Positions 17,037 to 54,108 of a stretch of DNA of 64,000 nucleotides are shown piece by piece. The notes under the pieces are model-generated. The model saw only the letters and a program-made list of their open reading frames with translations, was not told the origin of the DNA and searched no databases. This DNA comes from a virus: IMG/VR virus record IMGVR_UViG_3300025892_000009; one strand, written 5' to 3'. A program made the position numbers and the translations under genes. The stretch's first letter is position 1, and each line of letters begins with the position of its first letter.

Positions 17037-20000
17037 TTAAGTAGCTAGAGCAATTGCTCTAAGGTCTGCAATTAATGGTACTCGTGCTTGGTTTTTAGAT
17101 TTCATCACAATCTTTAATTGGAATGCATTGAAGTTTAAACCTTTCTTCTCATAAGCATAATCTTTCCAGAGATATTCATCTGTAGGAGTAGAATCATACT
17201 GTTGATTTTGTGTAGATAAAGGTTCTCCAACCAATTCCCAACCAAGAGTATTGGGATCTGCAGTATCACCTGCTTTGAATGCTCTAAAGTAAACTCTTAC
17301 CTCAGTAGCAGGATGACGAGTGATTTGGAAATCAACTTTTAGAGATCTTGCTTCACTGCCCAAACGTGCTAGACGTGTGATATATACTGCATCATTCTGA
17401 TCACCTGTAGGTAGAGTAGAAACATCTTGTGTCCTATCAATGAGTCCCTGTTGACCATAAGCAGCTGGACCACCTGGCCAATAGTTGATTCTATTAGTTG
17501 TAGTAATCAATGACAATCTGTCAAGGTCAATACAAGGGGACAAAGAAGATTTTTCGGTTGTTAATTGAATTGCCATAGTCAAAGACTTATTGCCACCCAA
17601 CTTATTCTCTTCATTAATCTTAGAAGCTACCATTTGCGGAGATGCAAAAGCATTTTCTTCATTAAGGACAACATCTAAGAATTGACCATTATTGATAAAG
17701 GAGCTCTGATCGCGAGGAGCAGATCCACCTTCACCACCACCCTCACCAACTGACGTTGCCGTAGTAGTATTTACACGAGCAGTAATCTCAGTTTCTGGTA
17801 AAACCATGGTTGAAACTGTTGGTGTTAAAGTTTCAAATTGGACATTTTGAGATCCAAATACTGCTCCACCACCACCACGAATACCATTAGTTGCAACATG
17901 ATCGACTGCTAGCATATAAGTATCAATCCATGGGCACTCAATTCTTTCGTGGACTTTATTAATTTCCACTAGTGGAATGCCATCTAAGTTATAGCATTCA
18001 ACAATAGCGCCAGATGCATGAGTAGTATCTACAGTAGCATTTGAACCTCTACCACTTGTAGCAACAGTAATTACTTGACCGTTAGTAGAAATTGCAGAGT
18101 ATTGAATGATCTCATCGTCAATTTTCAAATAACCAGGATTCAAGTTTCCAGTGGCGGATCCACCAATAATTGTATGGAATTGTGATGCATCTTGGACTTG
18201 AATTGAAGTTACCCCTGCAGATAAGGATGAAGTCAATTGGGTGTTGGGCACTTCGGAGATAACTCCTTCAACCTCAACATTATTGGTCCGTTGATGCATG
18301 CCATGATTTCTATGGAAGACTGCAACTTCCTTATCATCCGCAGAATAAGAAGGTGATTGTGTTGGGAATGCAGTGTAAGAGTCTCCTGAATATGTGATAC
18401 TGGTAATTGTTGCAGACGTGCCGCCTGGATTTGTCAATGTATCTGATGCATCAAAAGAATATGTCAGATAGTTGAGGGTCAATGTATTGCTGCTTGCATC
18501 ATAAGCAGTTACAGTGCCTTGAGATCCAGAAGTAGATCCACTTACAACATCACCAACTTCAAACACTCCATTGAAGATAGCAGACAATACGAATACGCCT
18601 ACTGATTGTGAGGATGCCAAACCTTGGAAAGGCACTGAGTTAGCATCAAGGAAACCTGAAGTGAAGGTGCCTGTGATGTCCGTAATTGTAAGTTTTTGGG
18701 GATCGGAAACTGCATCAAACTCAGTGATTGTGCCCGTTGCTCCAGATGGACTCTGGACAACTCTTGCACCAATAGTAAAGTTATAAGTTTCACCAACAGA
18801 AAGTAGTAACTGTTGCTTTGGTTTAATTGTGAGAATAGGATTCTCAATCATATTGTGGATACCACCATTACCTTTACCAAGATCTGCATTATTGACAATT
18901 GCAGTACCAAGAGTAGAAGTAAACTCTGCACGATACACATTAAACTTCATATCTTCATACTGGTCAGCAGTCCAGGTAGAAGCGTTTTGTGACTTGAAGA
19001 GCACACCAGCATAGGGTTGCTCAGAGATCGTCCTTGTGCCAGATACATCGATGTCACCCATTCTGGAGATCCAGCAGTTGTATTCGTTGGAGTCAGACAG
19101 AAGCACGAAGCAGTATTCCGTTGACTGCTTGATATAAACAGGCGATCTAAATGTAAACCTAGTTGGGACTGCTGCGTTATCTGACAACTCAACCTGACTT
19201 GGATCGATGGTAATATCAGAGAAAGGTAGAATATCCTTAGTTGGATATCCATTTTCCATAGTCCTAATCTGCATAGAGATAGGAATATTTGCATCTTTTG
19301 TCTTAAAGAAGCAATCAATACCTGTTAGGAATACACCGCCTTCTTCATCAATAATGAAAGATTGTGCAAGAGGGTCATACCAACCAATCTGACGTGTTTC
19401 AGTCCTGGTTGTGATAACCGTGCGAGCATCATTAACAGTATCTCTAACCAACTCAGCATTACGGACTGCAAGAATATTTTCTCTAACAGTGCGAAGTGTG
19501 CCTACAGCACTATATGTAGTGTCCGCAGATGAAGTCACTTCATCATTTGCTCTACTATTGGTGGGCGATGTAGTGAATCTAAAGGTCCTTGTGCCTGTTG
19601 CCCAACGGGGATTTGAATCATTACCAGGATTAGGAATGAAGAATGATCCACGGAAGTTGCCGATATTATCGGTCAGCAAACGACGGTCTTTGATTACAGC
19701 ACGAGCACCTGAAGTTTCTCCAACTAGCACTTCACCCGTTTGCATATTGCCAAAGTAGTTTGGATTGACAGTTTCTGCCAATACTCCAGTATCAATATTT
19801 ACAAATGGTGTTGTAGATGCATAAGATTCTGCAAGGACTGCTGCTCCAGTGCCGTAGGGGTCGGTCTTATATGCATCATTTGCAGCTGCTACTTTAAATC
19901 TACATCCTGAATTTTGACCAACAACAGTTTCACCCACAACAAATGGAGTCTCGTTCGCACGAGGATCTGCAGTTGAGGACTTAGTTAACTCAATAACTTT

Positions 20001-23000
20001 AGGTGTAATGTAATTAGTAACATTTACGCCATCGAAGAATGCATAAATTCTTGTGCGAGGCTTCATACGATCTGTATTGAAAGATACGTTTCTGGATCTG
20101 ATCCAGGGGATTGCTGTTTGTGACAGCTCGGTATCTCCCAGTGATTTACGCTCAACCTTGGGCACAACTCTAGTCCTTACACCCTGACGTGCTTGGTTAT
20201 TAACAACCCTCCAGGTACGTCTATCATGGACGAAGAGTGGTTGACGACCCTGACCATGACCCAAACGACCTAATCTACGACCACCAGCGGCAAAACTACC
20301 AGATCTATTTCTTGTCTGAGTCCGTGAGATAAGAGACTGTCCAGTCCAGTTTGTCCTCCAAGATCCCCATTGAATAGGAGCAAAACCATTCTGGTCAATC
20401 TGCAGGTCTCTAGCAACGGCAGAGAAGTCACCTTCAACGTTTTCTACACGAGCAGGAAGACGCTTGATATCAATCCAGTCATCAGATGCAGGTGATAGAT
20501 CAATACGACCAATGAAAGTAAAGACATTAAATGGGTTAACATTTTCAGTCCTAGATGCATATGGTTGAGTAATAATTTGAAGATCGGTATATGGTAGCAA
20601 CACCATATTGCCAATAGTCTTCACAACATTAGAAGAAGAAGCTAGATTGAGTTGTAGTGGGACGTTAGTTGTATAGTGTGATGGACGTAAGAAACCTTCT
20701 TTAAAGTCCATTGAGCACTTATAGTCAACGTTGAGGACATCACCGATAGTGTGATCAGTAAAATCATCTACAACGTAACCATTCTTCAAACGGTCAAATC
20801 CATTATCATCGTAGGTCTTAGTATTTTCTGCTTGAGATTCAAGCAATGATAGGGAGGTATAATATTCAACGTGAGAAAGACGAGTCTCAAGATCCCCAAT
20901 ATCTTTCATCGTATAACGACGAATAATTTCGGGATAAATGATGATATCACGATCAACATCATAAGTATATGCTCTACATTCTAGTTGTGCCAAGAGCATT
21001 GCACTTTGAATGTTATCTGGAGGTGGCATATCTTCTGAAGATACACCTTTACTAATCTTCAATTCATTTTCATGTGTTAGATAAATTTTATCAGCACGAG
21101 GAAGATAGTAGGTATAATCCATACGGATTTCAGTTGCTACCTTAGGAATATCGAAGATGGTAGATCCACCAGCACCACCAGAGGTATCGAATTGACGAGC
21201 ACCAAAGTCCAGAGAAGCACAATTCACATAGTAAGGTGCTGTGATAGTACCCGATCCAGATGCCAATTCACCAACACCAGGACGGAAATCGACTTGATCT
21301 CTCAAGTAGTTAATAGATCCATCTAACTTATATTTTGGAATATCTTTGAATGCAATGCCAGTATAAGATTGGTTTGAGAAATAATCACCCGAAGATTCAT
21401 GCACAAAGTAGTCAAAGATAACTAGCAGTTTACGAATTGGAGGTGTATACTGAGGCAGTCTCAGCATTTTACATACATCATAGAAGTGTGCTTTCTGTCC
21501 CGATTCCAATTCGTACTGAGTAGTTACAACTTTACTTCCCTTAGATACGGATCCCTCAGCATCATCTACAATTGCAACTAGTGGGACGCCATCATCATCC
21601 ACACCATCAATAGTCTCGCCAGGTAAGAATGGAATTTCATTCAACTGCACAACATATAATTTAAGAGTGCTGTTGATGAATTGAATAACACGCCCACGAG
21701 CACCAGATGTTTTACCTACAACTACACTACCATTATCGAAGAAGGTGGACTCAGTAAGTGTTAGGAAAGGTGGCTCTGCATCAGAATCATTCTCAGATTC
21801 ATATACTGCTTGAATATTGTAAACATCATTCAGTGCAAATGAGATCTCGTCATCTTCAATACGAGTGCCATACAAGTTACCATATGCCAAACCATACTTT
21901 TGTTGGTCATTATTGATACTTGTGCGAATGACCTTCATTGCACGCATCTTAGATGCAGTTTTAATTTTCTTAGAAACAATATTCTTAGAAACTAGAGCAG
22001 TCAATTTAACAGTATTAACATTTGCCAAACCATCAATAGTGATGGACTGTCTATCGGCACCAAAACTAACTGTTAGTGACCCTGCATCATTCATCGCATC
22101 GATGTCTAGGTTTTGTCCTACACTATATGCAGATCCAGATTGACCAAGAATAGTTAAAATATAGTTTTCATTGTCTAATGATGCAAACTGCTCAGATTCT
22201 GGCAGGGATACAGTAACACCACCAGACACAACCGTTTTATTAGTGAATGTGCGATATACAAAGAATGATTCGTCAGAGATAGATCTCATCGAAACGCGAG
22301 GTGCGTCAATAGTGAGCTCACCATTCTGGTAGTCCTTCTGGAATACAAAAGGACGCATTCTGACTAGAGTGCCATATTCGCCATCAGCAACAGTACCTTT
22401 ACTCAAGGTAGTATCAATTTCTGCAGTCTGTAATAGGGAATCAAAAATAGTATCAGCAGCACCTGTTGCAGAGTTTCCTGTAATAGTTGAGATTGATGTT
22501 GGATCAACTCTTTCGATTCTTAAACTATTTTCACCTTCTGCTGTAGTATTTGTGGCAGTAATGACATCACCAGGACGCAAATCTTGAATAAATTTGGTGC
22601 GGAAACCAGTGATTCTTTGGTCGGTGGCAGAATCAATAGTTACTGTAGATGCTTCAATTTCTTTCTGGTCATTAAGTAACCAGTTAGCACCAAAGATAAC
22701 TACATTACTAGAATTTCTACCATAGCAAGATCTAGTATCTGCCAAGTTATAAGTATGTGCTGCCTCAAGAGTACCGATAACACGACCATCTCTTTCCATC
22801 ACCTCGCCATTGATAAATGTCCCTGACACTTGCTCAAGCTTACAATTAGTACCACTGCCAGCATCTGCAACAAAACCGCGAGCATTTGAGGTGCGACCTT
22901 TCAGCACATCTCCAACTGATACTGAGTTATTTCCTGACGCAAAGTTAATTGCAGTAAACATCTGAGCATCAAAGATCCACAGATCATATGTAGTATCTGT

Positions 23001-24356
23001 GTCAATTTGAATTTGAGCAATTCTAGTTCTACCAATCATTCTACCTGTAGTTGTATTAGTAGAATTCAGAGTCCAATCATCATACAATTCAATTACTTGA
23101 TATGCAGATGTAACTCCCTCTCCAGTTAGATTGGGCCAACCATAAACATCATATACTTTAATGAAGTTTCCTAAACGGAATGAGATAATACCATTTTGGA
23201 CTCCTTCAAAGTCACGGGGTTTGGGGGAATCAATATATTGAGGTGTTAGGAATTCGGTCCTGTATCCTCTTACATATGCCCTACCTGGTGAGATCTCATA
23301 CGTGATCAAATCATCAGATGGGATATTGCCTTGTGAAGTAGTTTCACCTGGACGATATACACCATTATTGAATCCATCATCCAAACACTCTCTTGCCTTA
23401 ATGCTGAATGTATCAATTACATAGTCGCCAGATTCTTCATATGTCCTACGAGCAAGAGATCTCTCTAACTCTGAGTACGCTGTATTAGTAACGAATTGCT
23501 CAACTTTACTATTGTTGATACGAAGCAATTCGATAAAGTTTTTATCAGTCTCATCATTGATTGCTTTTTTAACCAGTGTTGTTCTGATTCTAAATCTGTG
23601 AGATCCTGGAGCAGCATAATTGGATGTGCCTGCTGCATTATCATTAAGTGATGGATCGTCTTCTGGAGTTACAATAGACTCACTAACTTCAAGACCAACT
23701 CTGTATGATGGATTATTTGTATACTGCTCTAGAATCAAATACTGAGATGGGACATCAACAAAGTGTCCTCTCATAAAGTATACACCTGCATTAATATATG
23801 CAGTTGAAGCCACTGAAGTTGCATCAACAGGTAATAGTTGACCGAATGGTGATCCAACTTCAATCAGAGTTGTGCCAAACGTAATTTCATTCTCAGCAAT
23901 GATCTGCTCATTTGGCTGGAATGTTGTAATTGTAGATTCCGAAACAGTATCACCAGACTCAATGTATTTTACATACAGGGTGACATATCCTCTAGAGGAT
24001 TCTGTTGCTGGAATTGAATACAGGACCTTTGCTTTAATGCCTGTAGTCAGACCTTCAATTATTTGACCAGTGAGTTGAGTCCTATATGTCTCAAGATCAA
24101 TACCCAAGAATGATTGTTGCAAGATCACTGCTTGGACATTTAGATCATATCCCACCTGACCAGGAATAACCATCGCACCTTCTTTAAAGAAGTGCTGACC
24201 AATTGACTCTAACTGATTCTGCAGAATCGACTGCATAGTCGTAATTTCGCGAGCCTGAATTGGGTATCCAGGACGGAATAAGACTCTGTAAAAATTCTTA
24301 TCCTTATCGAAATCATCAAAATAAGGAGAGATATTTAGATTAGTATTCTGGGGCAT
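17037..24356 (-). CDS. Large virion structural protein, DUF4815/VrlC-like
   Basis: 2439 aa. N-terminus PYFDDFDKDKNFYRVLFRPGYPIQARE, LARRTYEESGDY, RLKNGYVVDDF, DPLAQSF and TWTADQYEDMKF motifs. Confidence 0.88.
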   Translation of the reverse strand: MPQNTNLNISPYFDDFDKDKNFYRVLFRPGYPIQAREITTMQSILQNQLESIGQHFFKEGAMVIPGQVGYDLNVQAVILQQSFLGIDLETYRTQLTGQIIEGLTTGIKAKVLYSIPATESSRGYVTLYVKYIESGDTVSESTITTFQPNEQIIAENEITFGTTLIEVGSPFGQLLPVDATSVASTAYINAGVYFMRGHFVDVPSQYLILEQYTNNPSYRVGLEVSESIVTPEDDPSLNDNAAGTSNYAAPGSHRFRIRTTLVKKAINDETDKNFIELLRINNSKVEQFVTNTAYSELERSLARRTYEESGDYVIDTFSIKARECLDDGFNNGVYRPGETTSQGNIPSDDLITYEISPGRAYVRGYRTEFLTPQYIDSPKPRDFEGVQNGIISFRLGNFIKVYDVYGWPNLTGEGVTSAYQVIELYDDWTLNSTNTTTGRMIGRTRIAQIQIDTDTTYDLWIFDAQMFTAINFASGNNSVSVGDVLKGRTSNARGFVADAGSGTNCKLEQVSGTFINGEVMERDGRVIGTLEAAHTYNLADTRSCYGRNSSNVVIFGANWLLNDQKEIEASTVTIDSATDQRITGFRTKFIQDLRPGDVITATNTTAEGENSLRIERVDPTSISTITGNSATGAADTIFDSLLQTAEIDTTLSKGTVADGEYGTLVRMRPFVFQKDYQNGELTIDAPRVSMRSISDESFFVYRTFTNKTVVSGGVTVSLPESEQFASLDNENYILTILGQSGSAYSVGQNLDIDAMNDAGSLTVSFGADRQSITIDGLANVNTVKLTALVSKNIVSKKIKTASKMRAMKVIRTSINNDQQKYGLAYGNLYGTRIEDDEISFALNDVYNIQAVYESENDSDAEPPFLTLTESTFFDNGSVVVGKTSGARGRVIQFINSTLKLYVVQLNEIPFLPGETIDGVDDDGVPLVAIVDDAEGSVSKGSKVVTTQYELESGQKAHFYDVCKMLRLPQYTPPIRKLLVIFDYFVHESSGDYFSNQSYTGIAFKDIPKYKLDGSINYLRDQVDFRPGVGELASGSGTITAPYYVNCASLDFGARQFDTSGGAGGSTIFDIPKVATEIRMDYTYYLPRADKIYLTHENELKISKGVSSEDMPPPDNIQSAMLLAQLECRAYTYDVDRDIIIYPEIIRRYTMKDIGDLETRLSHVEYYTSLSLLESQAENTKTYDDNGFDRLKNGYVVDDFTDHTIGDVLNVDYKCSMDFKEGFLRPSHYTTNVPLQLNLASSSNVVKTIGNMVLLPYTDLQIITQPYASRTENVNPFNVFTFIGRIDLSPASDDWIDIKRLPARVENVEGDFSAVARDLQIDQNGFAPIQWGSWRTNWTGQSLISRTQTRNRSGSFAAGGRRLGRLGHGQGRQPLFVHDRRTWRVVNNQARQGVRTRVVPKVERKSLGDTELSQTAIPWIRSRNVSFNTDRMKPRTRIYAFFDGVNVTNYITPKVIELTKSSTADPRANETPFVVGETVVGQNSGCRFKVAAANDAYKTDPYGTGAAVLAESYASTTPFVNIDTGVLAETVNPNYFGNMQTGEVLVGETSGARAVIKDRRLLTDNIGNFRGSFFIPNPGNDSNPRWATGTRTFRFTTSPTNSRANDEVTSSADTTYSAVGTLRTVRENILAVRNAELVRDTVNDARTVITTRTETRQIGWYDPLAQSFIIDEEGGVFLTGIDCFFKTKDANIPISMQIRTMENGYPTKDILPFSDITIDPSQVELSDNAAVPTRFTFRSPVYIKQSTEYCFVLLSDSNEYNCWISRMGDIDVSGTRTISEQPYAGVLFKSQNASTWTADQYEDMKFNVYRAEFTSTLGTAIVNNADLGKGNGGIHNMIENPILTIKPKQQLLLSVGETYNFTIGARVVQSPSGATGTITEFDAVSDPQKLTITDITGTFTSGFLDANSVPFQGLASSQSVGVFVLSAIFNGVFEVGDVVSGSTSGSQGTVTAYDASSNTLTLNYLTYSFDASDTLTNPGGTSATITSITYSGDSYTAFPTQSPSYSADDKEVAVFHRNHGMHQRTNNVEVEGVISEVPNTQLTSSLSAGVTSIQVQDASQFHTIIGGSATGNLNPGYLKIDDEIIQYSAISTNGQVITVATSGRGSNATVDTTHASGAIVECYNLDGIPLVEINKVHERIECPWIDTYMLAVDHVATNGIRGGGGAVFGSQNVQFETLTPTVSTMVLPETEITARVNTTTATSVGEGGGEGGSAPRDQSSFINNGQFLDVVLNEENAFASPQMVASKINEENKLGGNKSLTMAIQLTTEKSSLSPCIDLDRLSLITTTNRINYWPGGPAAYGQQGLIDRTQDVSTLPTGDQNDAVYITRLARLGSEARSLKVDFQITRHPATEVRVYFRAFKAGDTADPNTLGWELVGEPLSTQNQQYDSTPTDEYLWKDYAYEKKGLNFNAFQLKIVMKSKNQARVPLIADLRAIALAT

Positions 24357-24359
24357 CTT

Positions 24360-25895
24360 TTAGAACTCTACTACGATCTTAATGTCTTCGATTTGGTCTC
24401 CAGCACGAGTAATCGCGCCTCTATTATCTATGTAAATAACTTCACCCGAATTTGGATCCACTTCTGGATTTGCATATCCATTGGTAAATGCCATGCCAAG
24501 ATCATACTCAGTATTATTAATAATACGAGTTGATGCTCCAGACACAATTGGGAAGTTGATATCTGGATCGGAAGATGCACCAGATGTTGCACCAACAACA
24601 GGGTTACCACCCTGAAACTCAATTAAACTACCAGTGAATTCTGGGAAAATACCGTCAATTCTATTCTGATAATACTTAAGCACCTTAGTGGTAGCATTCC
24701 AAGAAATTACACGCCCACGAGCAGTTACTTGCTGACCACCAATTGTGCGAGATTGTGTGATAATCTCATCAGTCTGATAGTTACCTGTAAATGAAGGTGA
24801 GAAAATAACGGCTTTAGATGCTGACAGTGTAAGATCTGCAGTTAATTCTACAGTGCCATACTTATTTGGGTTGATCACTAGACCAATACGACGGTAGTCG
24901 TTATCAGTTGGGAAGTCTCCACTACCTTCAGCGTAGGTAAACTTCGTGTTGATCATTATACGGAAACCACCCAATTCCGTTTGGGGCGAAGCACCATGTC
25001 CTGTGACAGGAGGCACAACTACTTCAACGTTACCACCAGTACCTGTGCCAGCACCAATACCATTGACTTCATCAATAACGACTTTACCGAAGGTATATCC
25101 ACTACCACCAGAGGTTACAGTTGCCGATACAATACGACCACCATCGACAACTAATGATACTCTTCCACCAACACCATCTCCTTTAATTGAGACGTTTTCA
25201 TATGTGCCATTGTTATAACCTGCACCAGATGATGCAATAACAACAGTATCAATTTCACCTCCAATAGCATCCGATACCACAGCAGTATCGCTAAGGACAG
25301 GCATGTATTCGTTGGAGAAGAATTTCAATACCTGACCAACAGGGATTGTATACATATACTTCCAACGGTAACCATCAGCAGTCGTGATAACTGAAGTGGA
25401 GGTGCCAGTAGGCTCAACAGTAGAAGGTTTGCCGTTAGGATCAGAAGGACTTGTCCCGTTATAGATGCACTTATATACTTGGTAAGATGAGTTGACAACA
25501 TAGAAATCTGCATCATACAGTTTCGTAGCACCTGACGATGCCGTCTTCGTCGAGGAATAATCATGCCTATACATATCATACACATAACCCAAACCACCAG
25601 TAGTTTGCTCAGGTGGAATCCAATCGGTACGACGAATGACCTGAATAGTATCATTCGCCAACACTCTCTTCATCGAGATCATGTCGGAATAATCATCCGC
25701 AAACTCTTGAAATGAGTCGATAGGATCTGGGGGAGCATTTTCATTATCCCATGGTTGAGGACGACCAATGAAAACATATAGTCGATCTCTAGATGCTCCT
25801 GCTAATAGGTCGGACTGTGCAGGGTCGGGACCCTCCAAAGATTTCCGAAATCTTTCCGCAGTAAAGATTCTAAATTGGTCGGTTAGTAATGCCAT
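24360..25895 (-). CDS. g8: Baseplate wedge subunit gp8
   Basis: LYVFIGRPQPW, YKCIYNG, DGYRWKYMYTIP, DYRRIGL and SGEVIYIDNR...EDIKIVVEF. Confidence 0.92.
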   Translation of the reverse strand: MALLTDQFRIFTAERFRKSLEGPDPAQSDLLAGASRDRLYVFIGRPQPWDNENAPPDPIDSFQEFADDYSDMISMKRVLANDTIQVIRRTDWIPPEQTTGGLGYVYDMYRHDYSSTKTASSGATKLYDADFYVVNSSYQVYKCIYNGTSPSDPNGKPSTVEPTGTSTSVITTADGYRWKYMYTIPVGQVLKFFSNEYMPVLSDTAVVSDAIGGEIDTVVIASSGAGYNNGTYENVSIKGDGVGGRVSLVVDGGRIVSATVTSGGSGYTFGKVVIDEVNGIGAGTGTGGNVEVVVPPVTGHGASPQTELGGFRIMINTKFTYAEGSGDFPTDNDYRRIGLVINPNKYGTVELTADLTLSASKAVIFSPSFTGNYQTDEIITQSRTIGGQQVTARGRVISWNATTKVLKYYQNRIDGIFPEFTGSLIEFQGGNPVVGATSGASSDPDINFPIVSGASTRIINNTEYDLGMAFTNGYANPEVDPNSGEVIYIDNRGAITRAGDQIEDIKIVVEF

Positions 25896-27799: not shown

Positions 27800-29284
27800 T
27801 CAAACCACCACTAAGTTACCAACCATGCTGGCATGGATTGTGCATTGATAAACATATGTTGTGCCAGCACTGAGAGTTTGGGGCACTGTCCAATATTGGA
27901 CTCCAGTTATAGATCCACTAACTCCAGCAGTTACAGAAGCTCCACCATTAGTTTGTCTCAGAGCAAATGGGTGACTAGCTCCAGTTGTGTTATTGAATTT
28001 ATAAGTGAATCCCCTATAAACATAGATTGTGGGATTATTTCCTGCATCATTAAGACCACCACCTTCAAAAGTATATGCTGAAGATCCGAATGCGCTTACT
28101 GTAATTCCAATAGATGCAGATGCACTTGCTTCCCAAGCTTCACTTTGACCGTTAAAAACTACAGTGTCATTATCTGCAGGGTTTGCAATTACAATGCCAT
28201 TATTGGTAATTGTAAGTGTATTTGAAGTTGCTGCTGTGCTAATTCCTGTCCCACCAGTTATTGCTAAAGTTGAAGTTGATAATGCCGCTGTTGTAGTGCC
28301 AGTATCTCCATTAATTGTCCTATAAACCTCTTGCACCACATTGGGTGAGTCATTAGTTACTGTAAGATTTTCTCCATTAATAGCAGTACTGATTCCAGTA
28401 CCACCAACAATGTTAACTGTAGTTGATGTGGTGCTAGCAGATCTGCTTCCACTATCAGACCCAATGGTAGCAAAAATATTCTGATCAGGATCTCCTAAAG
28501 ATCCACTCATATTGATTGTTACAACATCACCAGTAATTGATGTTGTAATATTAGTGCCACCTGCAATAGTTAAGGTATCTGTTGCAGCACTTGCAGTTGT
28601 AGATCCACTATCTGCATTGAAACTTTCAAATAGGTTTTGTGTAGTGCCACTACCACCTGTACCTTCGTTGAGATCATTTGCTGGCTCAAATGCACTATTT
28701 GTAGAATTCCACTTGAGCACTTGACCTTCAGATGGACCGCCGCCAACAGTCAGATCAACGTCTGCCAACTCACCAATAGATGATCCAACATCTATCAGTT
28801 GAATCCAACTACCATGAGCGAAGTAACCATGACTTTCATCATGCACATGTGCAAACATACCATGATGTGTTGCTACATCGGGGAGGTCAGATAAAGCAGT
28901 ATATGGAGCAGACCACTTAAAGTATCCATCTGCACCATCAACATATGCTAAGGCACTGCCTGCTCCACCTTTCCAAAATTTAATATCACCCGTGCCATCA
29001 GGCATGATATTAACATCTCCGTTGTTTTCGGAAACAATCTTAAACGTCTTGACGTTTAGATCTACACTAAGTGCATCAAAATGAGACTCAGTAAACTGAG
29101 TGCCATTCCATTTCAATACTTGCCCATCAAGAGGACTACCTATACTAAGTTGTAGGTTTGTTTCATTACCAAGATTATTGTAAATTTCATCAATGACATT
29201 ATTGAGTTTGATAGCGCCATCGCGGAGACTATCACCCAACCCGTCGTTAGCTGAACTACCAATACTGAGGTTTTGCTTGGCCAT
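27800..29284 (-). CDS. gp9/gp10-like (baseplate-fibre connector N-terminus) protein with a C-terminal cupredoxin-like domain
   Basis: MAKQNLSIGSSANDGLGDSLRDGAIKLN start, His-rich HHGMFAHVH segment, and C-terminal SHPF...YQCTIHASMVGNLVVV. Confidence 0.75.
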   Translation of the reverse strand: MAKQNLSIGSSANDGLGDSLRDGAIKLNNVIDEIYNNLGNETNLQLSIGSPLDGQVLKWNGTQFTESHFDALSVDLNVKTFKIVSENNGDVNIMPDGTGDIKFWKGGAGSALAYVDGADGYFKWSAPYTALSDLPDVATHHGMFAHVHDESHGYFAHGSWIQLIDVGSSIGELADVDLTVGGGPSEGQVLKWNSTNSAFEPANDLNEGTGGSGTTQNLFESFNADSGSTTASAATDTLTIAGGTNITTSITGDVVTINMSGSLGDPDQNIFATIGSDSGSRSASTTSTTVNIVGGTGISTAINGENLTVTNDSPNVVQEVYRTINGDTGTTTAALSTSTLAITGGTGISTAATSNTLTITNNGIVIANPADNDTVVFNGQSEAWEASASASIGITVSAFGSSAYTFEGGGLNDAGNNPTIYVYRGFTYKFNNTTGASHPFALRQTNGGASVTAGVSGSITGVQYWTVPQTLSAGTTYVYQCTIHASMVGNLVVV

Positions 29285-30928: not shown

Positions 30929-33900
30929 GTTGTCATCGAAGATGGTCGCTGGATTGAAGTTACTAATTACAGTAGCTCCAGTCTGGACACTTAGGATAGC
31001 AGATAGCGAATAGACTGGTGTTGCACCCGCTGCAGTAATTGCAACGCGATATTCATCACCATCATCAGATTGCACTGTGTTTCCAGTATCGTATACTGCT
31101 TGGTTAGCACCAATGATGTTACTCCAAGTTTGTATGCCATAATCTTTCTTCTGCCACTGATAATTCAAGGTTTCGCTATTGCTAACCGTAGCAACCACAG
31201 TGAATGAAGCAGTTGTATTTTGATTCACTGTCACGTTGACAGGATCTTGAGTGATAGAAATCGCACCAGGAGTAATCGTCGATCCTCCAGTATACTCACT
31301 ACCTTCGCCTGCGAGGATATCAAAACCACCATTGACAGGAGTGCCTTCGGGATTTACAAAATCATCGGGGACTTCATTATCAATTGCAATACTCGCTTGC
31401 GAATAACCAACACCTGGAGTCTTAACTACCATGTTGGCAATTCCAAGTTGTGCAACAATACGTGCGTCAAATCCTGTAGATGAAATAACGTCAACGTTTG
31501 GTATTGATGTATATCCATCACCAGGAGCAGTCAGACCAGCAGTTGTAACTTCTCCCGATGTCACATTAGCCAATGCGTCAGCATTACGACCCTTAACAGA
31601 TCCTGTATATTCAAATGTGATCAATGAGTTGGAAGACTCAATAAGAGCAACTTCTCTCTGAAACTCCTCACCCTCAATGACCAATTTATCGCCAGTTTCA
31701 ATTGGTGGCACAACAGTTGCTGCAACCACGTCAGCGTCACTACCAATATATGAGAATCCAACGTATGTAGATCCTGCACGAGGCACTTCAGAAAAGATGA
31801 TTCTGGATCCAACAATCTCGTATGCAACTCCAGGTTCTTGAATGATACCGTTGAGTGAGACAATAATGTTGTTTTCTGGGCGGATCACGTTAGAAGAAAC
31901 ACCTTCAGTCAATGTCAATGAATAGAAAAGTCCATCACGCTTGAGGTTGAAAGAAGATCTCAACGAATCAAACTCGAAACTAATATCGTCTAATTGACGT
32001 AGTTTACCAACATAATATCCGATAAACTCAGACCCAATATCAGGTGCTTCGGAGAATGCAATTTTGTCTGAGAATGCAACATAAGAGTTAGTTGCACCAG
32101 GTGGTTGCAGGACTCCATTCACCCATAGGAGTAGATGTCCTGCAGGATCTGGGAAGTATTGCTCACCATTTGCAATTGTAATATCGAAGGTAGTTTGGAC
32201 TCCATCAAATCCACGGAAGTAACGCTCAACGCGACCTTCAAGGACCCTGGCAGAAGAAACTGCTCCACCCCAACCATAATCAGATTTAATAGTCATATTA
32301 TCGACAAATAGACCCACTGCATTTTCAATATGGATTCTTGCAGTAATGCCCTGTTGATCAATATAAACCACACGCCCGTAAGATGTGTATCCAGTATCCA
32401 CAACTGATGTTACATTTGCGTAGATTGTTGGGAAGTTAGATCCAATATCAATCTTACCGATGTTATTGGAAGAATTTGTCAATTCGGATACTGGAGCACC
32501 AGTACCTACATCTACAGGATTAGCAATCCATAGTTTGTGGATTCCATAATTTGGATCAGAAGGATCTAGATTAGTGCCATTAATATACTGAGTAACAGTT
32601 GCACGGAAACCTGGATTTTTTTCTGTAGTGCCTTGAAGCAGGGAAACTTCATCTCCAACACGGAATGTATCACTTACACCCGTGTCGATAATTGCAATAC
32701 CAAGATTCAATTCATAGACGTTAGTGCCATGTAGGTACTGATTCAATTGGATCGCAGTGCCAGAGATACCCTTAACATCTAAGATGTAATCGGTAACGCT
32801 ACCATAAACAATATCACCAGGATTCCAAGAATTTTGGATAGTCTCAACGTCCATCGATATGCGACCACCCTGGTTACTAATAAGAGCACCAGATTTATTT
32901 ACATAACTTTCGGCATATGCTTCTGCAGAAGATTCAGAAGCAAACAACCAATCTCCTGCGGCAAAATCTCCAATCTCCAAATCCATCAAGAATCTATCAT
33001 CCGATGTGCCTGCAGTAGCAGTTGTGCCACTATCAACACCTTCAATTATATCACCATCATTAATAGTGCCAGCAACTGTCATAAGTTTTACAAATGAATT
33101 GCCATCATTGTCAGGATCTACTGTTTGTAGTACGTATCCGTTATTAGCAGTCGCACCTTGGACAACAACTTGCTCTCCATTAGTAAATCTATCATAAGTG
33201 CCTAATGTCTGAGATACGTTTGTCACTGGGAAGTTCTTGTAGATCTTGAAGATATTTGCAGAATTCAGTTGAATTCTAGAAACTTCGCTAGATGCTTCAG
33301 ATGTAGATCCATAAAGCACATCTGCAGGATTAAACCCACCTTGGATAGGAGTATCTGAGGGATCTGAAGGATAAACAGTTACATCACGAGTGATTCCACT
33401 ACGTCTCACAACTGAGAAGAGTTGTGATCCCACATTGGTAGTGTCTACTTCCAATAATCTAAAACGTCCATCGTGGATGTAATGAGCACCAATCTCAAAC
33501 CAAGTGCCTGTTGCAGACAAGACATAGAAATATGATTGTCCTGACAAACCTGTTAATGAATTTTCAGATGCAGGGATATATGAGAGGACATCACCACGAC
33601 GGAAGTAATTTCCACGGTTAATTCTAATTCTATATTCAGCACGATCAAATCCAACATCCACCAAAGGAGTCAAAGAAACCAGAGAAGGATCGGTATTATA
33701 GTCTTCACCCATCTCATATGTTGTGCTCAGATTCTGAGCATCAGTAGATGCTACAAATGTTACACTTGCTTCTGTTGGGAATGCAGATCTTTCCAATGCA
33801 AATTCTAGAGGATTCATTGAAGAATCCATAATAAATTCAGTTGCTTCTTGGAAGTAATCTATTCTTTCCTCGGGACTATATGTGATATATGAATCCCAAC

Positions 33901-36900
33901 CAGGATCAGTCTCAAGTTGATAAAGAGCACTCTTGGAAAATTCTCTAATTCTTGTTAATGCATAAATGAGATGTGATCTAATGACATCTGTAAATGCAAT
34001 GAAGTTTCCTTCACCATCAAACCAAGTCTGGGCAAGACGGAATGCTCCTGCATTACCACCTGTAATCATGTCATATCGCAATGCCTTAAGCACGGCATCT
34101 GGGAAATCGCTCGTGAGGTTAGTTGTTGCGTATGTTGCAGTAACATCATCTACAACCCTTGCCACAATTGCAGCATGGTTGAAGAGAAGTATATCTGCAA
34201 TACCCTTATCAGTATTTGCACCAGCACCAAGTGTATTTGACATAATATCAAACAACGTATCTACAGCAGATACTTCATTGTGACATGTGCCTGCCTGGTA
34301 ATTGGTATTGCCAGTAGATGCTGTGGTCTTAGTAACACTACCTGTTAGGTAGTTTACATTATTAACTGCAGCTTCTGTAATTGTGCTTATAACCATTCCA
34401 AACAAGGTATCAATCGAAGATGCCACTTGGGGACATACTTGATTCCAAGTGCTGTCGGCTTCAGATCCACCATTGGAAGTATCGTAAGTAATTGTCAGAT
34501 CTCTAATGACATTTTCAGGACTATACTTAACGGGCCAGATATATGGCAGAGAATAAGAATTTGTTGCAACTCCGCTAGGATTAGTGATGCCTCCAGTGAC
34601 AATTGCCATCAAAGTATCAATTCTTGCTTCAATCTCAGAAGTCTCAGTGCCAGTATAGTCTGGATCAACTACACGACCTCTATAGTATTCCAAGTTGCCT
34701 GTAATAGCATATTGCCAAGAAGCTGTGGGTTCTCCCGATGGCACATTACCTGCTGTGGCACCAAAACCGCCATCATTACCATCTGACCAAACACCACCGC
34801 CACTGCCAAGACCAATAACACTACCAACTCCACCACCATCACCACCACCAGGGGTATATGCAGTCCCCTGAATTTCATTGTCAATCCATAGTCTCACTCT
34901 ACCAGCACCAGTTGCCTGATTGCCACCAATACGGACTTCCCAAGTGATAGTATGTGCATTGCCATCCATAACACCTGCAGTTACCAGATCTGCAACTGGA
35001 ATATCCAACATTGCCAATCCAGTATCACTGGTGTATGAAGCACCACCAGCGTAGGTATTTCCTCCTGCACCAGCACGTAGTCTTAAGTATGTGCCACTAT
35101 CTCTAAATCCAAGGAAGGTTCCTATTGTAGATCCACCACCTTCAAAGAGGACACCATCAACTGGATTCGATGGAAGCACCGTGGTGCATTCGCAAACAAA
35201 ATCCTCATTACTGGTCATTCCAGTTGCAGAATTTGCAGAGTTATTGATATTAACTGTGCCTGATGCAAACGATCTGGTTAAAACATTATTAAAGACTGAG
35301 TTGTCAAGTCCATCAGTAATATCGTGAGGGCGAAGTTGATTGGATGGTTTTGCTGTAGCATCGAAGAAACGCTGACCAACTCCATATGCAGCAGTATTCG
35401 CAATCAGTTGATCCTTCATTGCACGTTTGACAAGATCTCTTGCCTTTTCCAAAATCCATATAGACTCAGTTGCTTGTGCAGTAATATGATCAAGTGTGCC
35501 TGCACTATTCACATAGAATTCTGTAGCATATTGCATCCAGTTTTCACCACCATATTGGAGGTTGAATACTAGAGATCTCAAGATGTCAGTAACATCATGG
35601 ACACAATCAATAACACCATTGGATACAACTGCACCTTTCTTAGCATCTACAAACGTATGCACATAACCTTGTGCCCATGCAGGAGATGCAGCAACAGACA
35701 CGGTAATTGTATCTGCAGTTACTGATGTAATTGCAATTGACTTATTGTAGTTATCATCACCAGGACGAGGATAATATTTGGTAGTTGCATTCTGATCTTG
35801 TGTGCAGGAGAATCCAATAGATTCGGGTTGAATCGTAACTCTATTTCCAGCAACCAAGGTGTGAGTGCCAATTGTTAATACTGATACTCCAGTAGCAGGA
35901 TCGTGAGTTGCAGCAGTTACATCAAATATATCTCCACCACGAATTCCACCATTGATTGACAATGAAGGATACTGTGCTTCACCCAAAGCAACTGCTTGCT
36001 CGGCAATATATCGAATATTGCCATCAATAGATTCTGCAGTGTCTCTATAATCTGTGGTAAAGGGATTCTGCTCATATGACTGGACAGGAGTGGACTCTGG
36101 AGTATTTCCTTCAATGTAATCTCTACCAAATGCATTACGCATTGTAGATAAGCAGAGATCTCTTACAATTTTATAAACGGTAACAGATGCTTCCCACTCT
36201 TTTTCAATATGCTTTAGTGAATTGTTTTCGGTCTCAATATAAAGTGCTGCTGCATCATAAGTTTTTTCATTACAATCGTGGAGGAGGTCATGGATGACAG
36301 CATTAATTGTATCTTTGACATCATCTTCGCAATTTACATGCCCACCAGGGACTTGCATAGTCCCATACTTAGACAAATCATTCATAATTGCAACTGCTTC
36401 CATTGCAATTACATTTTGATTTTCCTTAATTCTATTGACAGCATCTATGAAGCGATCATTAGAATTTCTAGTTGCTTGAGGCCATGCTTGCGGATCAATA
36501 GTGATTGTATTATCACGATATGCTGCTCTAGTGGTGTAGAGAGGTGAATAATAATCATCTTGTGCCCAAGCAGGGACACCCAATTCTGCAACTGCACTGC
36601 CAGGAGACATTAGAAGATTATTCAGTGCCTTAATACACAAATACTTGGCATACTCAAACGCATCCAACATGGGATTGAGCTCATGCTCAACATGGAGAAT
36701 ATTATCTTGAGAATCAAGGTAGTTATCAATCACATTCTTAATATTGTACGTGCCACCTGTTACGAGGTCAGCAATAACTCCAGGGAGGATATGGGTTTTA
36801 ATATCATCTTCACATGCACTTTGACCACCGCCAGGATAGACTAAGAATTGCTGTGGATTTCCATCAAGGGTCCTGGTATACTTTGCATTAATATATCCTG

Positions 36901-39900
36901 CAGTTTCTTCTGCAATGTAGTCACGATTTTTCCAAATCATTACACCAGAATCCTTGAATCCCTGATCTGTAGGTGCGATAACCTGTAAAAGATTATCAAT
37001 CAATACGCGAATTTCAGTTTGAATTGCATTAGATGCAGGAGAAGAGAAATTATTAGGAATTCTCAATCTTTGACTATAAACACCTGAAAGATCTGTGCTA
37101 GTTGTTGTGATAACATCATTAATGATATCTCCAACAGAGTCCCAAGTGAATAGTGTTTGTAGGACTTCCTTACCAATATAATTTAACTCACCACCCTTTG
37201 TTAGGTATGTGCGAGCAGTATATAAGGTGTGGTATGTGCCACCTTCTCTCAAGTCTTTAACAATCGCACCAATAATATAGTCCTTCGTATCGCGAAGGCA
37301 ATATGTAGTACCTCCATAAGAATTATTTGCAGGATCATCACCTGGCATAATGAAATCTGGGAATTGTGCCTTCATTCTTCCGACGGCTTCATCGGCAATC
37401 CAAGCATCATTCAATTCAATGATTCTTGCAGCATCCCTTTGATCTTTCCTTCCGAGGTCAACATCTTTAATGACAATAGTCTTGTCTACATAATTAATTT
37501 CCTTGGCAGTAGCACTGGATGTAAGAATTCCAGTAAATGTTGCATAAGTTTCAGTTGTAGACAGAATAAATGGATCTTCGCCATCCAGTCCTAATACAAT
37601 ATTGAGATTATTGTAATCAACTTGAGTTGGAGCAACAAATGGTGCAGAATATTTTGCTACTTTGTTATCAATGTAGAAATTATCCAGATACCCATCAAAT
37701 CCATTAGCAGCGTTGAAGTCGGCACCAATAGTTACTTTGGTATAGATATAATCATTTGTATCGGTGTAGTTGCTTCCTACCTGTGCTCCATTAACATAGA
37801 GTTGTAAGGTATTGGAAGTCCTAACCAATGCAATGTGATACCACCCATCGACAATAATAGTGCCACCAGAAATTAACTGAGTGGTGCCATTATAAACTCT
37901 CAGAGTACTACCATCCATGACCATTCGTAGTCCAAAGGTGGCAGACAAACGACGCATGTCGATCAGTGTCTGAGTGCCTGTTACTCCATTTGCTCTCCAC
38001 CAACCTTCGATTGTAAAATCATCAGTTGCTCCGAATGCATATTCAAAGGAGTCAGTTGCTGTCAAATATCCAGCAGCAGGAATCACAATACATTTAGTGC
38101 CACTCAATCTAGGACTCTTCTTGACAACACTTAAGGTGCAATTATTTTGATTGGCAAGAGTTGAGTTTGTAAGATACTCACCATCAACCATAGTCCCTGA
38201 TAACTCATCAGCAAAGATCACTTTCAGACCAGAATTAGATCCAATTGCTTGGAAAGTAGTACCCGATGTAACTCCACGGATTTGATCATTGATTGTGAAT
38301 AGACCTGAAGACTTATCCTTATATCCTAATTTAATGGTGCGGATTGTTTCTCCAGACTGGAAAGTGCCATCAGTTATAGATGCTAAGGCATTTACATTAG
38401 TGAGATTGCCAGCATTAATTGAAACTGTTGCAATATCAGTCAAAGTTGAAATATAAGACTGGACATCAGCACAGTTTGTTGCTAACTGATTACTACCATT
38501 TGCATAGTTAGCATCATAGGTAAATCCAGGAGCGGTGCCACCATAAGAAGCAGGATCGTTGAGGATTTCTAGATCTTTACCATAAAGTAAGTTATTAATT
38601 GCTAGATATGCAAGATCTCTAACTTTTTCAAATGCAGTGATAGACTCTGCAGTCTCTCCAACTAAACCGTTAGCAATAGGAGCACCCGCTGTGTCAAAAT
38701 ATGACCTAGTGAATGTAACTGTATTGAAATTGCCACCAGTAGCAACATCATTTGATATTGCATCAATGAATAGACCAATATCACGACGACACTTGATTTC
38801 ATTGGGTGTATAGGTACCTAATGATTCATCTGGCAACTCAGAAAGAGTGCCGCTGGTCATTGCATCATCTATAATTTCCCAAAGGGTGACAATTGCAGCT
38901 TGGACATCTTCACAGTTTTCGGTGTCTGTATTATCTACATTACTACCTGCAGTGCCATATGGATCATTAGGTGATGGGTCAGCAGTTATTGTTAGATCTT
39001 GATATGCGTCATATGAAGTGCCAGCATCAGGACCATTGACTTGAGAATAACTTCCAGAAAGGTTGTTTGTGATAGACAACAGCATATAATCTTTTGCTTT
39101 CTCATATGCCCACTTAGTTTCTACTGATTCAGTATCAACATAAACTAGAGCACCAGTACTATCGAAGTATTGTTGGATAAATTTGCGAGAGTATACATTA
39201 CCACCACGGAAAGTATCAACCGAAATCGCATCAATAAACTTCTTCAGATCACGCTTACACTTAGCAGCATCAGGCACCACCAAAGAAGGATACTCTGCAA
39301 TCATATCATCGTATGTTTTAGCAGCGATATACTCCTTATTCTTTTGAATGAAACGATGTCCATCTGCAAATCTACTCCAAGAATTGGTGATTGCATCACC
39401 AGGGAAGTAGAAGTCTGGATGATCAACAGCAATTTCTGCTTCAGCAAAATCAATCAATTCTTGCTTATTATCTTTGATTCTATTAGAGGCATCATAGAAT
39501 CTACTACCTGCTGTCCCATGATATGCAGATACTGGATTTCCATAATATATTCTTCTGTTTTGGATGCTATCTCCCTGAGCAAGAGTGCCATTACTCAATT
39601 GAGTATAGACAACTTCTGTAGTTCTTACTTCTTCAAAATCAAGGAAGTCGTCATTAATACGCTTAGAGTCATCATACAACGCAGTCGGTGTAATTGAAGA
39701 TTGTGAAATATTATCAAGAATAACATTTGGATTAGTAATACTGACCAAACGCTCAAACAGCAATCCATAGAAAGTGGATCCAGGGTTGATTTCCAACTCA
39801 GTGACAACATCATCTGTTACAGGATCGCGATATGGACCAATGAATGTAATTTGACCAGCAATTCCAGAAGATGCAGAGTAAATAAACTCATTCAATCTTA

Positions 39901-45900: not shown

Positions 45901-48900
45901 CATTGACAGTTAACTGACTAGTTGCTTCTAGATAATCGGCAATCCAATATCTAGTCTTTTTGTATTGCTGTGGATGAGAAACTCTAATCTGAGGGGGATT
46001 TTCAGGATCATATCCATTACCAGAGTTAATGATATCTGCAGATAGAATTTGTCCTGTATTCAGGAGATTTAATCTCAGAGATGCATCTTGTCCATCGGCA
46101 GCGATCAATTCAAAGGTAGGTGGAATATCTACATTATATCCAACACCCTCTTGCTGCACCGCAATACGCTCAATGCCAGCAACAACCTTAACTTTGAATA
46201 GTTTATTAGTATTGTCGATGATTGGACGTGAATTGACGATCAGCTGATCTTGCTGACGAAGCTCATGCTCAACACTAGTAGTGATAACACCATATGGTCT
46301 ATCACCAATCATCTCTTTGGAATATCCAAGGATAGTCTGACCCTTGACCGATTCAATAATTGCAGATGCACCAAATCCACCAGTATCAGTATTATCAAAG
46401 AAGACAGTATCATTGACCTGATAAGAAACACCAGGATTCTCAATAACAAATCCATCAATCTGAGCATTCTCAAATTGAGTGGTTGTCTCAACTTCAATAT
46501 CAACTCTAGACTCTGCCGATACTTGAGGGAAGTAATCATAGATCTGAAGAGTTGCCTCTTCCGACATTTCTAAGATTTCAGTTTGCTCTGTGGCATCAAT
46601 TAGACCATCATTGTTACTATCTTGAATTTCAAAGATAATTGGATATCCTTCAATTTCAGTAGTTAATGTATCTGCTTCCTGGTTTGGTTGACGATCAATA
46701 TCAATATCAACATTTACATATGGGTCTCTATATCTTACAACACCAGTAGGAATATTTTCTTGAGTTGCTTGCTGACTAGAATTCCAAGCATCTGGTGAAG
46801 AGTTAAACTGGGGACCAATGATATATGGGAATTCTGCAATACCAGCATCTGATGCATCAATTGTAATAAAGTATGCATAGGTGCCATCTGGATATTCTGG
46901 TGTCTTACAGAAACGACCATTATATGTGTCTAGATCACCTTGTTGGAATACATATGTGTAATCTTCAACAAAGCTGCCTGCAGGATATGTTGCAATTGCA
47001 GGACCATCTACACGACTAGGATTTGGATTGGTATCAAGATCATAAACAACATTAGTTTTTAAACCATAAGATGTACGTAACCTTCTAATGCCACTATTCT
47101 GATCTGTAGGATCTGAATATGCATAAGGACCATAAATTGGGTTACCGTCAAATGCCCATCCAATAATAGGAGAGTGTAAGAAGTTTGATTCTAATTCTCT
47201 AAACTGTGTTGTGACAGGATCTAAGAAAACATTATCACCAACAACATATCTCAACTCCTTAGGATCGCTAAGGTGAGCATATTCACCACCAAATTGGTTG
47301 TTATATCCAGTAAAGACATAACCTCTAGCAAAATCAAAGTTATCTTCCAAATCATACTGAAGATTTCTACTCCATTGGAAAACCTCAGGACTGAAGGTTG
47401 CCAACTCACCAATAGATCTCAGTCTAACTGTAGTATTACCTTGAGTATATCCAATACCTCTGTTGGTAATAGTGATACTTAATACTCTACCCTTATCTTC
47501 TCCTGTAGTGCCGATTGTTGCCTGTGCAAGGGCACCAAAACCATCTCCATTGATGATTACCTCAGGCGCAGTTGTATATCCACTACCTGAATTAATAATA
47601 GCAATAGAAACAATACGACCATTCAGCACAATTGGTTGTGCCAATGCACCTTCGCCAGAGTTAACTCTGACCTTAGGTAATGAAGTATATCCACTACCGA
47701 AATTAGTAACCGATACGGATGAAATTGGTCCACGGACGTTTGCAGTTGCTTCTGCACCTAAACCACCACCACCAGTAATCGAAACTGACGGTTGGGCGGA
47801 ATATCCAGATCCAGGTTGATCAACCAGAATTCTAGTAACTCTACCGCCCGTAATAACTGCTTGTGCCGTTGCACCAGATCCATTACCACCAACGATTGAA
47901 ACTAGAGGTGATTCTTCATATCCACTACCTTGATTTGTTACTGTAAATGATGTCAGACTACCGTTAACAACAACTTCACCTGTTGCACCCGATCCACCAC
48001 CACCAGTGATTTCAAGGTTGGGTTTAGTGCCAGCATCATAATTGACACCTACATTGGTAACACTAATAGATGTTAATGGTCCAAAAGTAACAGACTCGCT
48101 TGACTTGTATGACCAAATAGACACACCGTTAATCCAAGCACCAATAGGACTATTATTGGGGGTATCTTTACGCTCAGAGATTGTTTGCACACTTCTAGGG
48201 AATCTCAGCAATTTACGCTGGTTTCCAGGAATAAGTGCCGATTCACTAAAAGGACCAATCTTATAATTAGGCAGACCAGATGCTGCAATATAGACATACT
48301 CATCATTGAAGAATGAGTTTTGAATATTTGTTGTAAACTGGTTAATTACACTATTAATTGAATTTTGATTAGACTTACCACGGTTAAGATCCACTGATAG
48401 TAGAATATTACCTTGTGGAATAATCTCCGTAGGTGTTACTAATTGATATGAGAATACTAACGTATCAATACGTGAAGTTACAATAAATGATCCGTTATAA
48501 ACGACAGGGTTTGCACCATAGATGGTTACAGTGTCTCCAACTAGCAGACCATGGGGATTTTCACAATAAACAGTTGCGGTTTGGTTATTAACACCACCAC
48601 TTTCAATTCTTGAAACTTGAATAAGTTTTTTGACATTATATAACCAAGAATCTAATTTTTTATCATCATCAGTAGATCCAAGGTTGGCAACTTTTAATTT
48701 ATCTCCTGCAATATAGTAAGATCCTGTATTATCTAAAACTGTAGTGCCAGCTTCAGCAATACCCAAGATTCTTAGTTTACACTCAGTGCTAGTATTTCTA
48801 TTAACATACACAAAAATGTCAGATTGAACTGTAGTGCCAGGATCCCAATCTTCTACAATGCCATTTTGACTTCTTGTGCATTCAATAAATTGATTAAGTG

Positions 48901-53688: not shown

Positions 53689-54108
53689 TTATGCCTTCTC
53701 TAAGAGAAAATCGATAGTTTGGGTAATTTGCTCGCCTATAATCGTATAATCAATAGAAACTGCTAATGAATTTAAATCTCCATCAGCATCATCGCGCACA
53801 TCCACTTTTGAAACTACAATTCGTGGCTCTAATCGCGACAAACAATTCGTAATTTCATTTTTAATTGCATCTGCACTGAATACATCCCAATTTTCAAATA
53901 AAAGTCCTTTCACTTGAGACCCAATAGTGGGTTGAAAGAACCTTTCCCCAGTGATTGTTAGAAGTAAATTTCTAACAGACTGTTTTATGGCGTTTTCATT
54001 TTTTACGACACCAAAATCGCCAGTAGAGGGATTAGCAATAAATGATACTGCTAAATCTTTAAACCCTCTACTGACGTATTTTTCAGATCTAAATCTGTAA
54101 GATGCCAT
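53689..54108 (-). CDS. g25: Baseplate wedge subunit gp25
   Basis: FKDL...NENAIKQSVRNLLLTITGERFFQPTIGS and RLEPRI motifs. Confidence 0.95.
   Translation of the reverse strand: MASYRFRSEKYVSRGFKDLAVSFIANPSTGDFGVVKNENAIKQSVRNLLLTITGERFFQPTIGSQVKGLLFENWDVFSADAIKNEITNCLSRLEPRIVVSKVDVRDDADGDLNSLAVSIDYTIIGEQITQTIDFLLEKA

Follow-up and report, generated by a model that had tools for sequence, protein, structure and literature searches.

The giant baseplate protein of a marine cyanophage contains seven helical domains that, on the combined weight of sequence profiles and predicted structures, almost certainly share both ancestry and fold with the phycobiliproteins (PBPs), the pigment-bearing antenna proteins of cyanobacteria. 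The protein is encoded in a window of 64,000 nucleotides from IMG/VR virus record IMGVR_UViG_3300025892_000009, in a single uninterrupted open reading frame (ORF) of 6848 amino acids (30926–51472, minus strand) that holds all of the PBP-like repeats. A sequence-only reading of this DNA had proposed that such domains are built into the virion, and the shared ancestry and globin-like fold that it postulated are upheld by four independent tests: Pfam matching, searches of the Protein Data Bank (PDB) with a repeat profile, profile–profile alignment with hhalign, and AlphaFold modelling followed by Foldseek and VIA-align. Most likely, the repeats are PBP-superfamily domains that the virus acquired from a cyanobacterial host and that, after duplication, became part of the protein that occupies the gp7 position of the baseplate. 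As judged from their sequences, the seven domains mostly keep the residues used for pigment attachment, and the virions may accordingly be pigmented and light-responsive. Such a particle, if real, would be the first of its kind, and even without pigment the protein would clearly show that a photosynthetic antenna protein of the host had been turned into a structural part of the virion. Full-text searches of the literature turned up no paper in which PBP-like domains are described from virion proteins; automatic Pfam hits on relatives of this protein are already public.

Seven repeats in one open reading frame

A hidden Markov model (HMM) built from the copies recovers seven full helical repeats of ~140 amino acids in the giant ORF (R1 to R7 in the order of the protein), with E-values from ~1e-24 to 5e-46, and additionally three N-terminal half copies. 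Applied to all six frames of the window, the same HMM gave no match outside these repeats, which, together with the E-values, places the pattern far beyond chance. All repeats lie on the minus strand. R1 (residues 4023–4153; 39014–39406; E 1.8e-39) carries the site KC4072KRD and a single Cys, scores 15.5 bits against the PBP family PF00502 by itself, and is preceded by a half copy with a RFYDASNRIKDN helix (residues 3968–4029; 39386–39571), which the HMM matches weakly (E 0.093, profile 12–52). R2 (residues 4162–4312; 38537–38989; E 5.5e-46; site KC4228RRD) has an N-terminal helix of the 'NCxDVxxxIxTL' type, and another half copy (residues 4317–4376; 38345–38524; E 0.019, profile 4–47) stands ahead of a LamG insertion. 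R3, the repeat chosen for modelling (residues 4658–4812; 37037–37501; E 2.5e-28), has the site YC4725LRD and again a single Cys. In R4 (residues 4820–4971; 36560–37015; E 2.5e-25) the Arg is replaced (AC4887EDD), and R5 (residues 4990–5132; 36077–36505; E 1.1e-33), with NC5048EDD, starts with RFIDAVNRIKEN. R6 (35345–36106; DC5290VHD) is matched in two parts, at residues 5123–5179 (E 0.0022) and 5223–5376 (E 4.3e-26); a β-rich insertion of ~100 amino acids, with a boundary placed from the sequence, appears to split its B-like helix (5123–5179) from the Cys helix. R7 (residues 5739–5872; 33857–34258; E 9.5e-24) has no Cys, LRYD replacing CxRD.

The six Cys motifs on which the sequence-only reading was built occur exactly as quoted in the translation of the giant ORF, with Cys codons at 39257–39259, 38789–38791, 37298–37300, 36812–36814, 36329–36331 and 35603–35605 (residues 4072, 4228, 4725, 4887, 5048 and 5290, respectively). 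The Cys-less copy that it listed is likewise present (RYDMITGG, residue ~5799), as is its example of an 'RFxDAxxxIxxNxxxI'-type helix, RFIDAVNRIKEN at 36419–36454. A second conserved helix, the Cys-bearing 'NCxDVxxxIxTLxxII', opens alternate repeats instead of the latter type; it is seen at 38900–38960, 38430–38480 and 34380–34440 (residues ~4187, ~4345 and ~5690–5720) and also in the consensus of tandem repeat pairs from other phages.

Relationship to phycobiliproteins

When a segment of 1907 amino acids was searched with PF00502, the profile proposed for this purpose in the sequence-only reading, it scored 26.8 bits against a curated cut-off of 22.2 (E 5.6e-6), the match falling on R3 and covering positions 33–83 of the 155 in the profile. 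Single repeats score 15.5–17.7 bits or nothing, that is, below the cut-off. Precomputed PF00502 matches exist for most of 81 giant homologues, including those of Synechococcus phage S-WAM1 and of S-SZBM1. A profile of 71 diverse repeats from IMG/VR loci (alignment A2), run against 177,635 PDB sequences, retrieved PBPs exclusively, 138 of them with E < 1, the top match being the α subunit of C-phycocyanin (CpcA, E 1.2e-6), on which the phage Cys falls on Cys84, within 'KC.RDIGY...GG'. A smaller repeat profile (A1) behaved in the same way. Cyanobacterial cpcBA loci, 80 in all, were gathered via a motif from the PDB alignments, and the phage repeat HMM recognised 141 of the 142 PBP ORFs among their 763 ORFs. 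The phycocyanin strings that the sequence-only reading had given proved to be real, being found in these loci in the CpcA and CpcB of Thermosynechococcus, where the CpcB string runs into EQPQLIQPG. Alignment of A2 by hhalign gave a probability of 92.7% (E 5.7e-8) with CpcA and 93.8% with the α and β subunits together (E-values within 3–6e-8), and the motifs KCxRDIG and DAVNRI..N...I are in register in the profile alignments.

An AlphaFold2 model of R3, computed with A2, has a five-helix core with a predicted local distance difference test (pLDDT) score of 80–94. Foldseek comparison of this model to the PDB yielded PBPs in all matches listed, with E-values of 0.15 or worse, probabilities mostly of 0.9–1.0 and template modelling (TM) scores of up to 0.57. 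In VIA-align, a structural search independent of Foldseek, the ten best matches are bilin binders of the PBP fold, phycoerythrins included. An allophycocyanin-like chain is at the top (Z 12.6, root-mean-square deviation 2.6 Å over 115 residues), followed by the bilin domain of the core-membrane linker ApcE (Z 12.3), a far-red allophycocyanin (Z 12.2) and the photocobilins (Z 10.0–11.2), and below the PBPs come globin-coupled sensors (~8.5) and haemoglobins (~6). The five-helix unit is present twice in a two-repeat model of R4–R5 (pLDDT 62). In these models the repeat unit is a five-helix globin-like bundle, equivalent to PBP helices A/B-E-F-G; a predicted fold unrelated to globins and PBPs, which would have spoken against the earlier proposal, was not what the R3 model returned. 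The structural alignments begin at about PBP residue 21 and the modelled units have five helices with low-confidence N-terminal flanks, which bears on the presence of an X–Y hairpin. Matches of the R3 model in a viral structure library are cyanophage proteins named 'tail' or 'structural', or unnamed.

The resemblance could in principle be due to chance or to convergence on a common helical bundle, in keeping with the failure of single repeats to reach the Pfam cut-off, the modest Foldseek E-values, and the frequency of middling Z-scores among helical bundles. We consider this highly improbable, because the reciprocal profile searches are both specific and significant, the top structural matches are all of the PBP fold and stand well apart from other globins, and the identities in KCxRDIG and DAVNRI..N...I fall in register.

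The α and β subunits of PBPs (PF00502: CpcA/B, CpeA/B, ApcA/B) have the same globin-like fold as the phage repeats, with helix B, the following loop and helix E in register, equivalents of Cys84, Arg86 and Asp87 in the repeats, and a size (~140–165 amino acids) near that of the phage unit; CpcA is the best sequence match. Unlike these subunits, the phage domains are repeated, in tandem or nested, within a virion protein (seven times here, as many as 35 times elsewhere), they have motifs of their own (DA..DL..GGN, YF, GE, N.L) and, in some units, large insertions in the B–E loop, and no X-helix hairpin for α–β pairing is evident in their low-confidence N-terminal flanks. Assembly into (α-β)3 discs of the phycobilisome kind is unlikely for domains fixed in a baseplate protein of this length. 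ApcE resembles the phage protein in having a PBP-fold domain with a loop insertion within a large multidomain protein, but it is a cellular antenna protein in which the PBP domain occurs once, and the phage repeats showed no particular affinity to it in sequence. The photocobilins, which are B12 photoreceptors, provide a precedent for a PBP-fold domain in a photoreceptor rather than an antenna; they differ in being cellular regulators in which the bilin domain is paired with a B12 domain, and their likeness to the phage repeats is structural.

Conservation of the bilin-binding site

Structures of PBPs have established that Arg86 and Asp87 touch the bilin. The only bilin site shared by all PBPs is Cys84 (PMC2327270). 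Six of the seven repeats keep both the Cys equivalent to Cys84 and the Asp equivalent to Asp87, and three of the seven also keep the equivalent of Arg86: R1–R3 have CxRD, R4 and R5 CxDD and R6 CxHD, whereas R7 is without the site. Each position holds its own site state across 57 orthologues. Positions R1–R4 are mostly CxRD (for R4 in 52 of the 57, although this window has CEDD there), R5 is CxDD in 52 and R6 is CxHD in 45, and R7 is degenerate in the orthologues as well (MxVD, LxID and others). In a set of 123 repeats with mutual identity below 60%, Cys is kept in 104 (85%), Asp in 108 (88%) and Arg in 73 (59%).

Internal disulfides, which would have offered another reason for the Cys conservation, were considered and rejected. 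R1 and R3 each have a single Cys, which excludes such a bond within them, and so do 249 of the 625 repeats counted; conservation of the Cys thus cannot in general be put down to an intradomain bond.

Our preferred working model, for which we see the chances as evenly balanced, is that most of the PBP-like domains still bind bilin, so that the periphery of the baseplate would bear chromophores. Several features of the family weigh against it. Arg86 is replaced in R4–R6 and the site is lost in R7; the sequence similarity to PBPs can be relied on from helix B to helix E (profile ~17–76) and no further, the hhalign alignment of the C-terminal halves being of low confidence; and the family has strongly conserved motifs (DA...DL..GGN, YF, GE, N.L) that are missing from PBPs and point to a function of its own. 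These features would also suit domains that derive from PBPs but are free of pigment, the fold serving baseplate and fibres as a stiff spacer of helices or as a module for receptor binding, with Cys and Asp kept for a structural role or for a ligand other than bilin. We regard this as the main rival, if somewhat short of an even chance. Copy numbers, which reach 24–35 per protein, are of the kind seen in structural fibre repeats, LamG, CBM-like and β-propeller modules characteristic of adhesins lie between the domains, and no published report of pigmented cyanophage particles was found in the literature. A pigment-free domain would, however, make it hard to explain without an ancestral ligand why the equivalents of Cys84 and Asp87 are conserved at ~20% overall identity; single-Cys repeats remove the intradomain disulfide as a general reason, all of the nearest structural matches bind bilin, and the tight co-occurrence and adjacency with cpeT described below would be left unexplained. 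The lack of reports of coloured phages is weak evidence, since six sites in each of six protein copies, a copy number assumed as for T4 gp7, give an estimated ~36 bilins per particle, which at 1e12 particles per ml correspond to an estimated absorbance below 0.01 and could not be seen with the naked eye at the titres commonly worked with.

Distribution in cyanophages and linkage to cpeT

With R1–R2 as a repeat-only query, tblastn matched 333 of the 50,697 phage records searched, and every one of these 333 is a cyanophage. Matches in phages of Pseudomonas, Rhizobium and Burkholderia and in PhiJL001 were rejected as relatives of the repeats, being due to the LamG domain and disappearing with the repeat-only query. 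The repeat profile, run against 1.84 billion proteins, matched 1461 clusters (50% identity), in which a protein can have as many as 35 repeats, and further giant proteins of cyanomyovirus tails or fibres have related PBP-like copies as well. The metagenomic proteins P0081 (6611 amino acids), P0086 (6382 amino acids) and P0087 are nearly all repeat, with 33–35 matched stretches.

The relationship of the repeats to cpeT, which encodes a CpeT-type lyase, was explored in 17 phage records representing 16 distinct genomes (the record G004 is S-PM2), using A2 and the Pfam CpeT profile PF06206. Repeats and cpeT are both present in P-HM1, P-HM2, S-PM2, Syn1, P-SSM4, P-RSM4, P-SSM7, S-WAM1 and an ACG-2014i-like genome (G003), and both are absent from P-SSM2, P-SSP7, S-SM2, S-SSM7, S-CRM01 and S-TIM5. 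ACG-2014f has repeats and matches PF06206 only below the cut-off (E 0.038); in sister ACG-2014f isolates, however, a tblastn search with the CpeT of S-PM2 gives partial matches that bear a CpeT-like annotation and extend over 44% of the query (E 8e-5 to 9e-5), and on this sequence evidence ACG-2014f probably counts as cpeT-positive. None of the 16 genomes has cpeT without repeats. If ACG-2014f is taken as positive and relatedness is left out of account, the table has a one-sided exact probability of 1.25e-3, a figure that overstates the evidence because the genomes are related. In Syn1 cpeT is clear (NC_015288 19938–20462, PF06206 E 1.5e-35) and annotated; Table 3 of PMC3037559 gives it as absent.

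Physical linkage was observed in ten phages (S-PM2, Syn1, G003, S-RIM32, S-RIM44, ACG-2014j, ACG-2014e, S-CAM1, S-H9-2 and S-RSM4), in which cpeT precedes, by 0.4–5 kb, a second giant gene with repeats whose annotation is 'short tail fibre' or 'tail protein'. In S-PM2 (LN828717 154408–167723; L316:4409-17724) cpeT is directly upstream of the giant repeat gene S-PM2d218 (3779 amino acids), with only tRNAs and a 2OG-Fe(II) oxygenase between them, and a 'short tail fiber' gene follows. The loci L170:25-13340 and L091:1110-14309 likewise have cpeT directly upstream of a giant repeat gene. No cpeT was visible among the ORFs of the window that were scanned, and no match was found in the nearest records, G001 and G002, which are fragments.

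A strict rule that repeats occur only with cpeT is broken by S-SKS1, a 208-kb Synechococcus siphovirus with one clear repeat (E 5.5e-26) in a hypothetical protein of 928 amino acids (HQ633071 15531–18317; L323:2464-5250). The PBP-like domain is thus not confined to T4-like myoviruses.

Light-dependent adsorption and a possible mechanism

Adsorption of cyanophages to their hosts differs in its dependence on light. P-HM1 and P-HM2 fail to adsorb in the dark and P-SSM2 and P-SSP7 adsorb in it (Liu et al. 2019, PMC6628666), and adsorption of S-PM2 needs light but not photosynthesis, according to the account of Jia et al. 2010 given in PMC6628666. The three light-requiring phages, P-HM1, P-HM2 and S-PM2, have repeats and cpeT, whereas neither is present in the dark-adsorbing P-SSM2 and P-SSP7. 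This match between repeats and adsorption covers five phages from about four lineages and is suggestive only; together with the cpeT linkage it provides circumstantial support for light sensing.

If the domains do bind pigment, they would receive a bilin (phycoerythrobilin or phycocyanobilin) on the Cys84-equivalent Cys during virion assembly in the infected cell, through the phage CpeT-type lyase, host S/U-type lyases, or autocatalysis of the kind by which ApcE attaches its own bilin (PMC2327270), and the baseplate periphery would then bear a few dozen chromophores per particle. More speculatively, absorbed light could shift the conformation of the baseplate or fibres such that adsorption occurs only in the light. 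The full proposal, a photoreceptor borne by the virion in which bilins covalently bound to PBP-derived domains of baseplate and fibres, attached with the help of phage CpeT, permit adsorption only in light, is in our estimation unlikely. Two old puzzles become directly testable. One is the light-dependent, photosynthesis-independent adsorption of S-PM2, P-HM1 and P-HM2. The other is the presence of cpeT and bilin reductases in cyanomyoviruses, even in those that infect Prochlorococcus, which lacks phycobilisomes; it has been called 'a mystery' (Sullivan et al. 2010, PMC3037559). A virion photoreceptor, if true, would explain both the light-dependent adsorption and the presence of cpeT and bilin-synthesis genes in phages of phycobilisome-less Prochlorococcus.

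To the reservations about pigment binding given above, several more have to be added for the photoreceptor. The light dependence of adsorption could reside in the host receptor. T-type lyases attach bilin at β-Cys155, not at Cys84, where attachment is the work of S/U- or E/F-type lyases or, in ApcE, of autocatalysis (PMC2327270; PMC10452541), so CpeT is not the textbook enzyme for a Cys84-type site. S-SKS1 is the sole case of a repeat without cpeT among the 16 genomes, and that panel is small and phylogenetically non-independent, in a group of T4-like phages whose synteny is generally conserved. Finally, P-SSM2 and S-SSM7 encode pebS and ho1 (Table 3, PMC3037559) yet are without repeats, which indicates that bilin synthesis genes have other roles too.

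Bilin might also be bound for a purpose other than light-gated adsorption, either for photoprotection of the particle or for delivery or sequestration of the bilin. This alternative shares the evidence for bilin binding and gains from the dependence of the adsorption correlation on five phages of about four lineages; a few dozen chromophores on the baseplate could hardly be expected to shield the DNA in the head, which argues against the photoprotective variant, and we consider the alternative as a whole quite improbable.

The giant protein and the baseplate module

Pfam searches of the flanking ORFs identified gp25 (53689–54108) and gp6 (51477–53687) on one side of the giant ORF and gp8 (24360–25895) on the other. 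The order gp25-gp6-[6848-aa ORF]-gp8 is that of the T4-like baseplate module, and the giant ORF, flanked by gp6 and gp8, therefore occupies the gp7 slot. This position supports its assignment as a baseplate protein of a T4-like cyanomyovirus and, with it, the 'baseplate protein' label used in the sequence-only reading. The next gene downstream encodes a YHYH protein of 530 amino acids (PF14240; 29319–30911), and a gp9/10-like protein, identified by its gp9/10-N match, is encoded at 27800–29284.

The nearest cultured relative of the giant ORF is the 'baseplate wedge initiator' of S-WAM1, with ~48% protein identity. A megablast search of the region against phage records gave no match, so the closest isolate is related only at this protein level. 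The phage ORF has the same position between gp6 and gp8 as the T4 wedge protein gp7, which is about six times shorter; it differs from T4 gp7 in the PBP-like, LamG and YHYH modules that were added in cyanophages. Pfam scans of the whole giant ORF gave no gp7 family match, no comparison aimed at T4 gp7 having been made. They did identify a YHYH domain (PF14240) at residues 1393–1540 (46853–47296) and, between R2 and R3, a concanavalin-like Laminin_G_3 domain (PF13385, E 1e-16; 37661–38035, minus strand), as well as a β-propeller repeat, a weak CBM5/12 match and a weak second LamG-like match below the cut-off.

Downstream of gp8 there are two further giant ORFs (9610–16407, 2265 amino acids; 17037–24356, 2439 amino acids), in which the repeat HMM detected no PBP-like repeats; one of them has an S-WAM1 counterpart with the annotation 'baseplate wedge tail fiber connector'.

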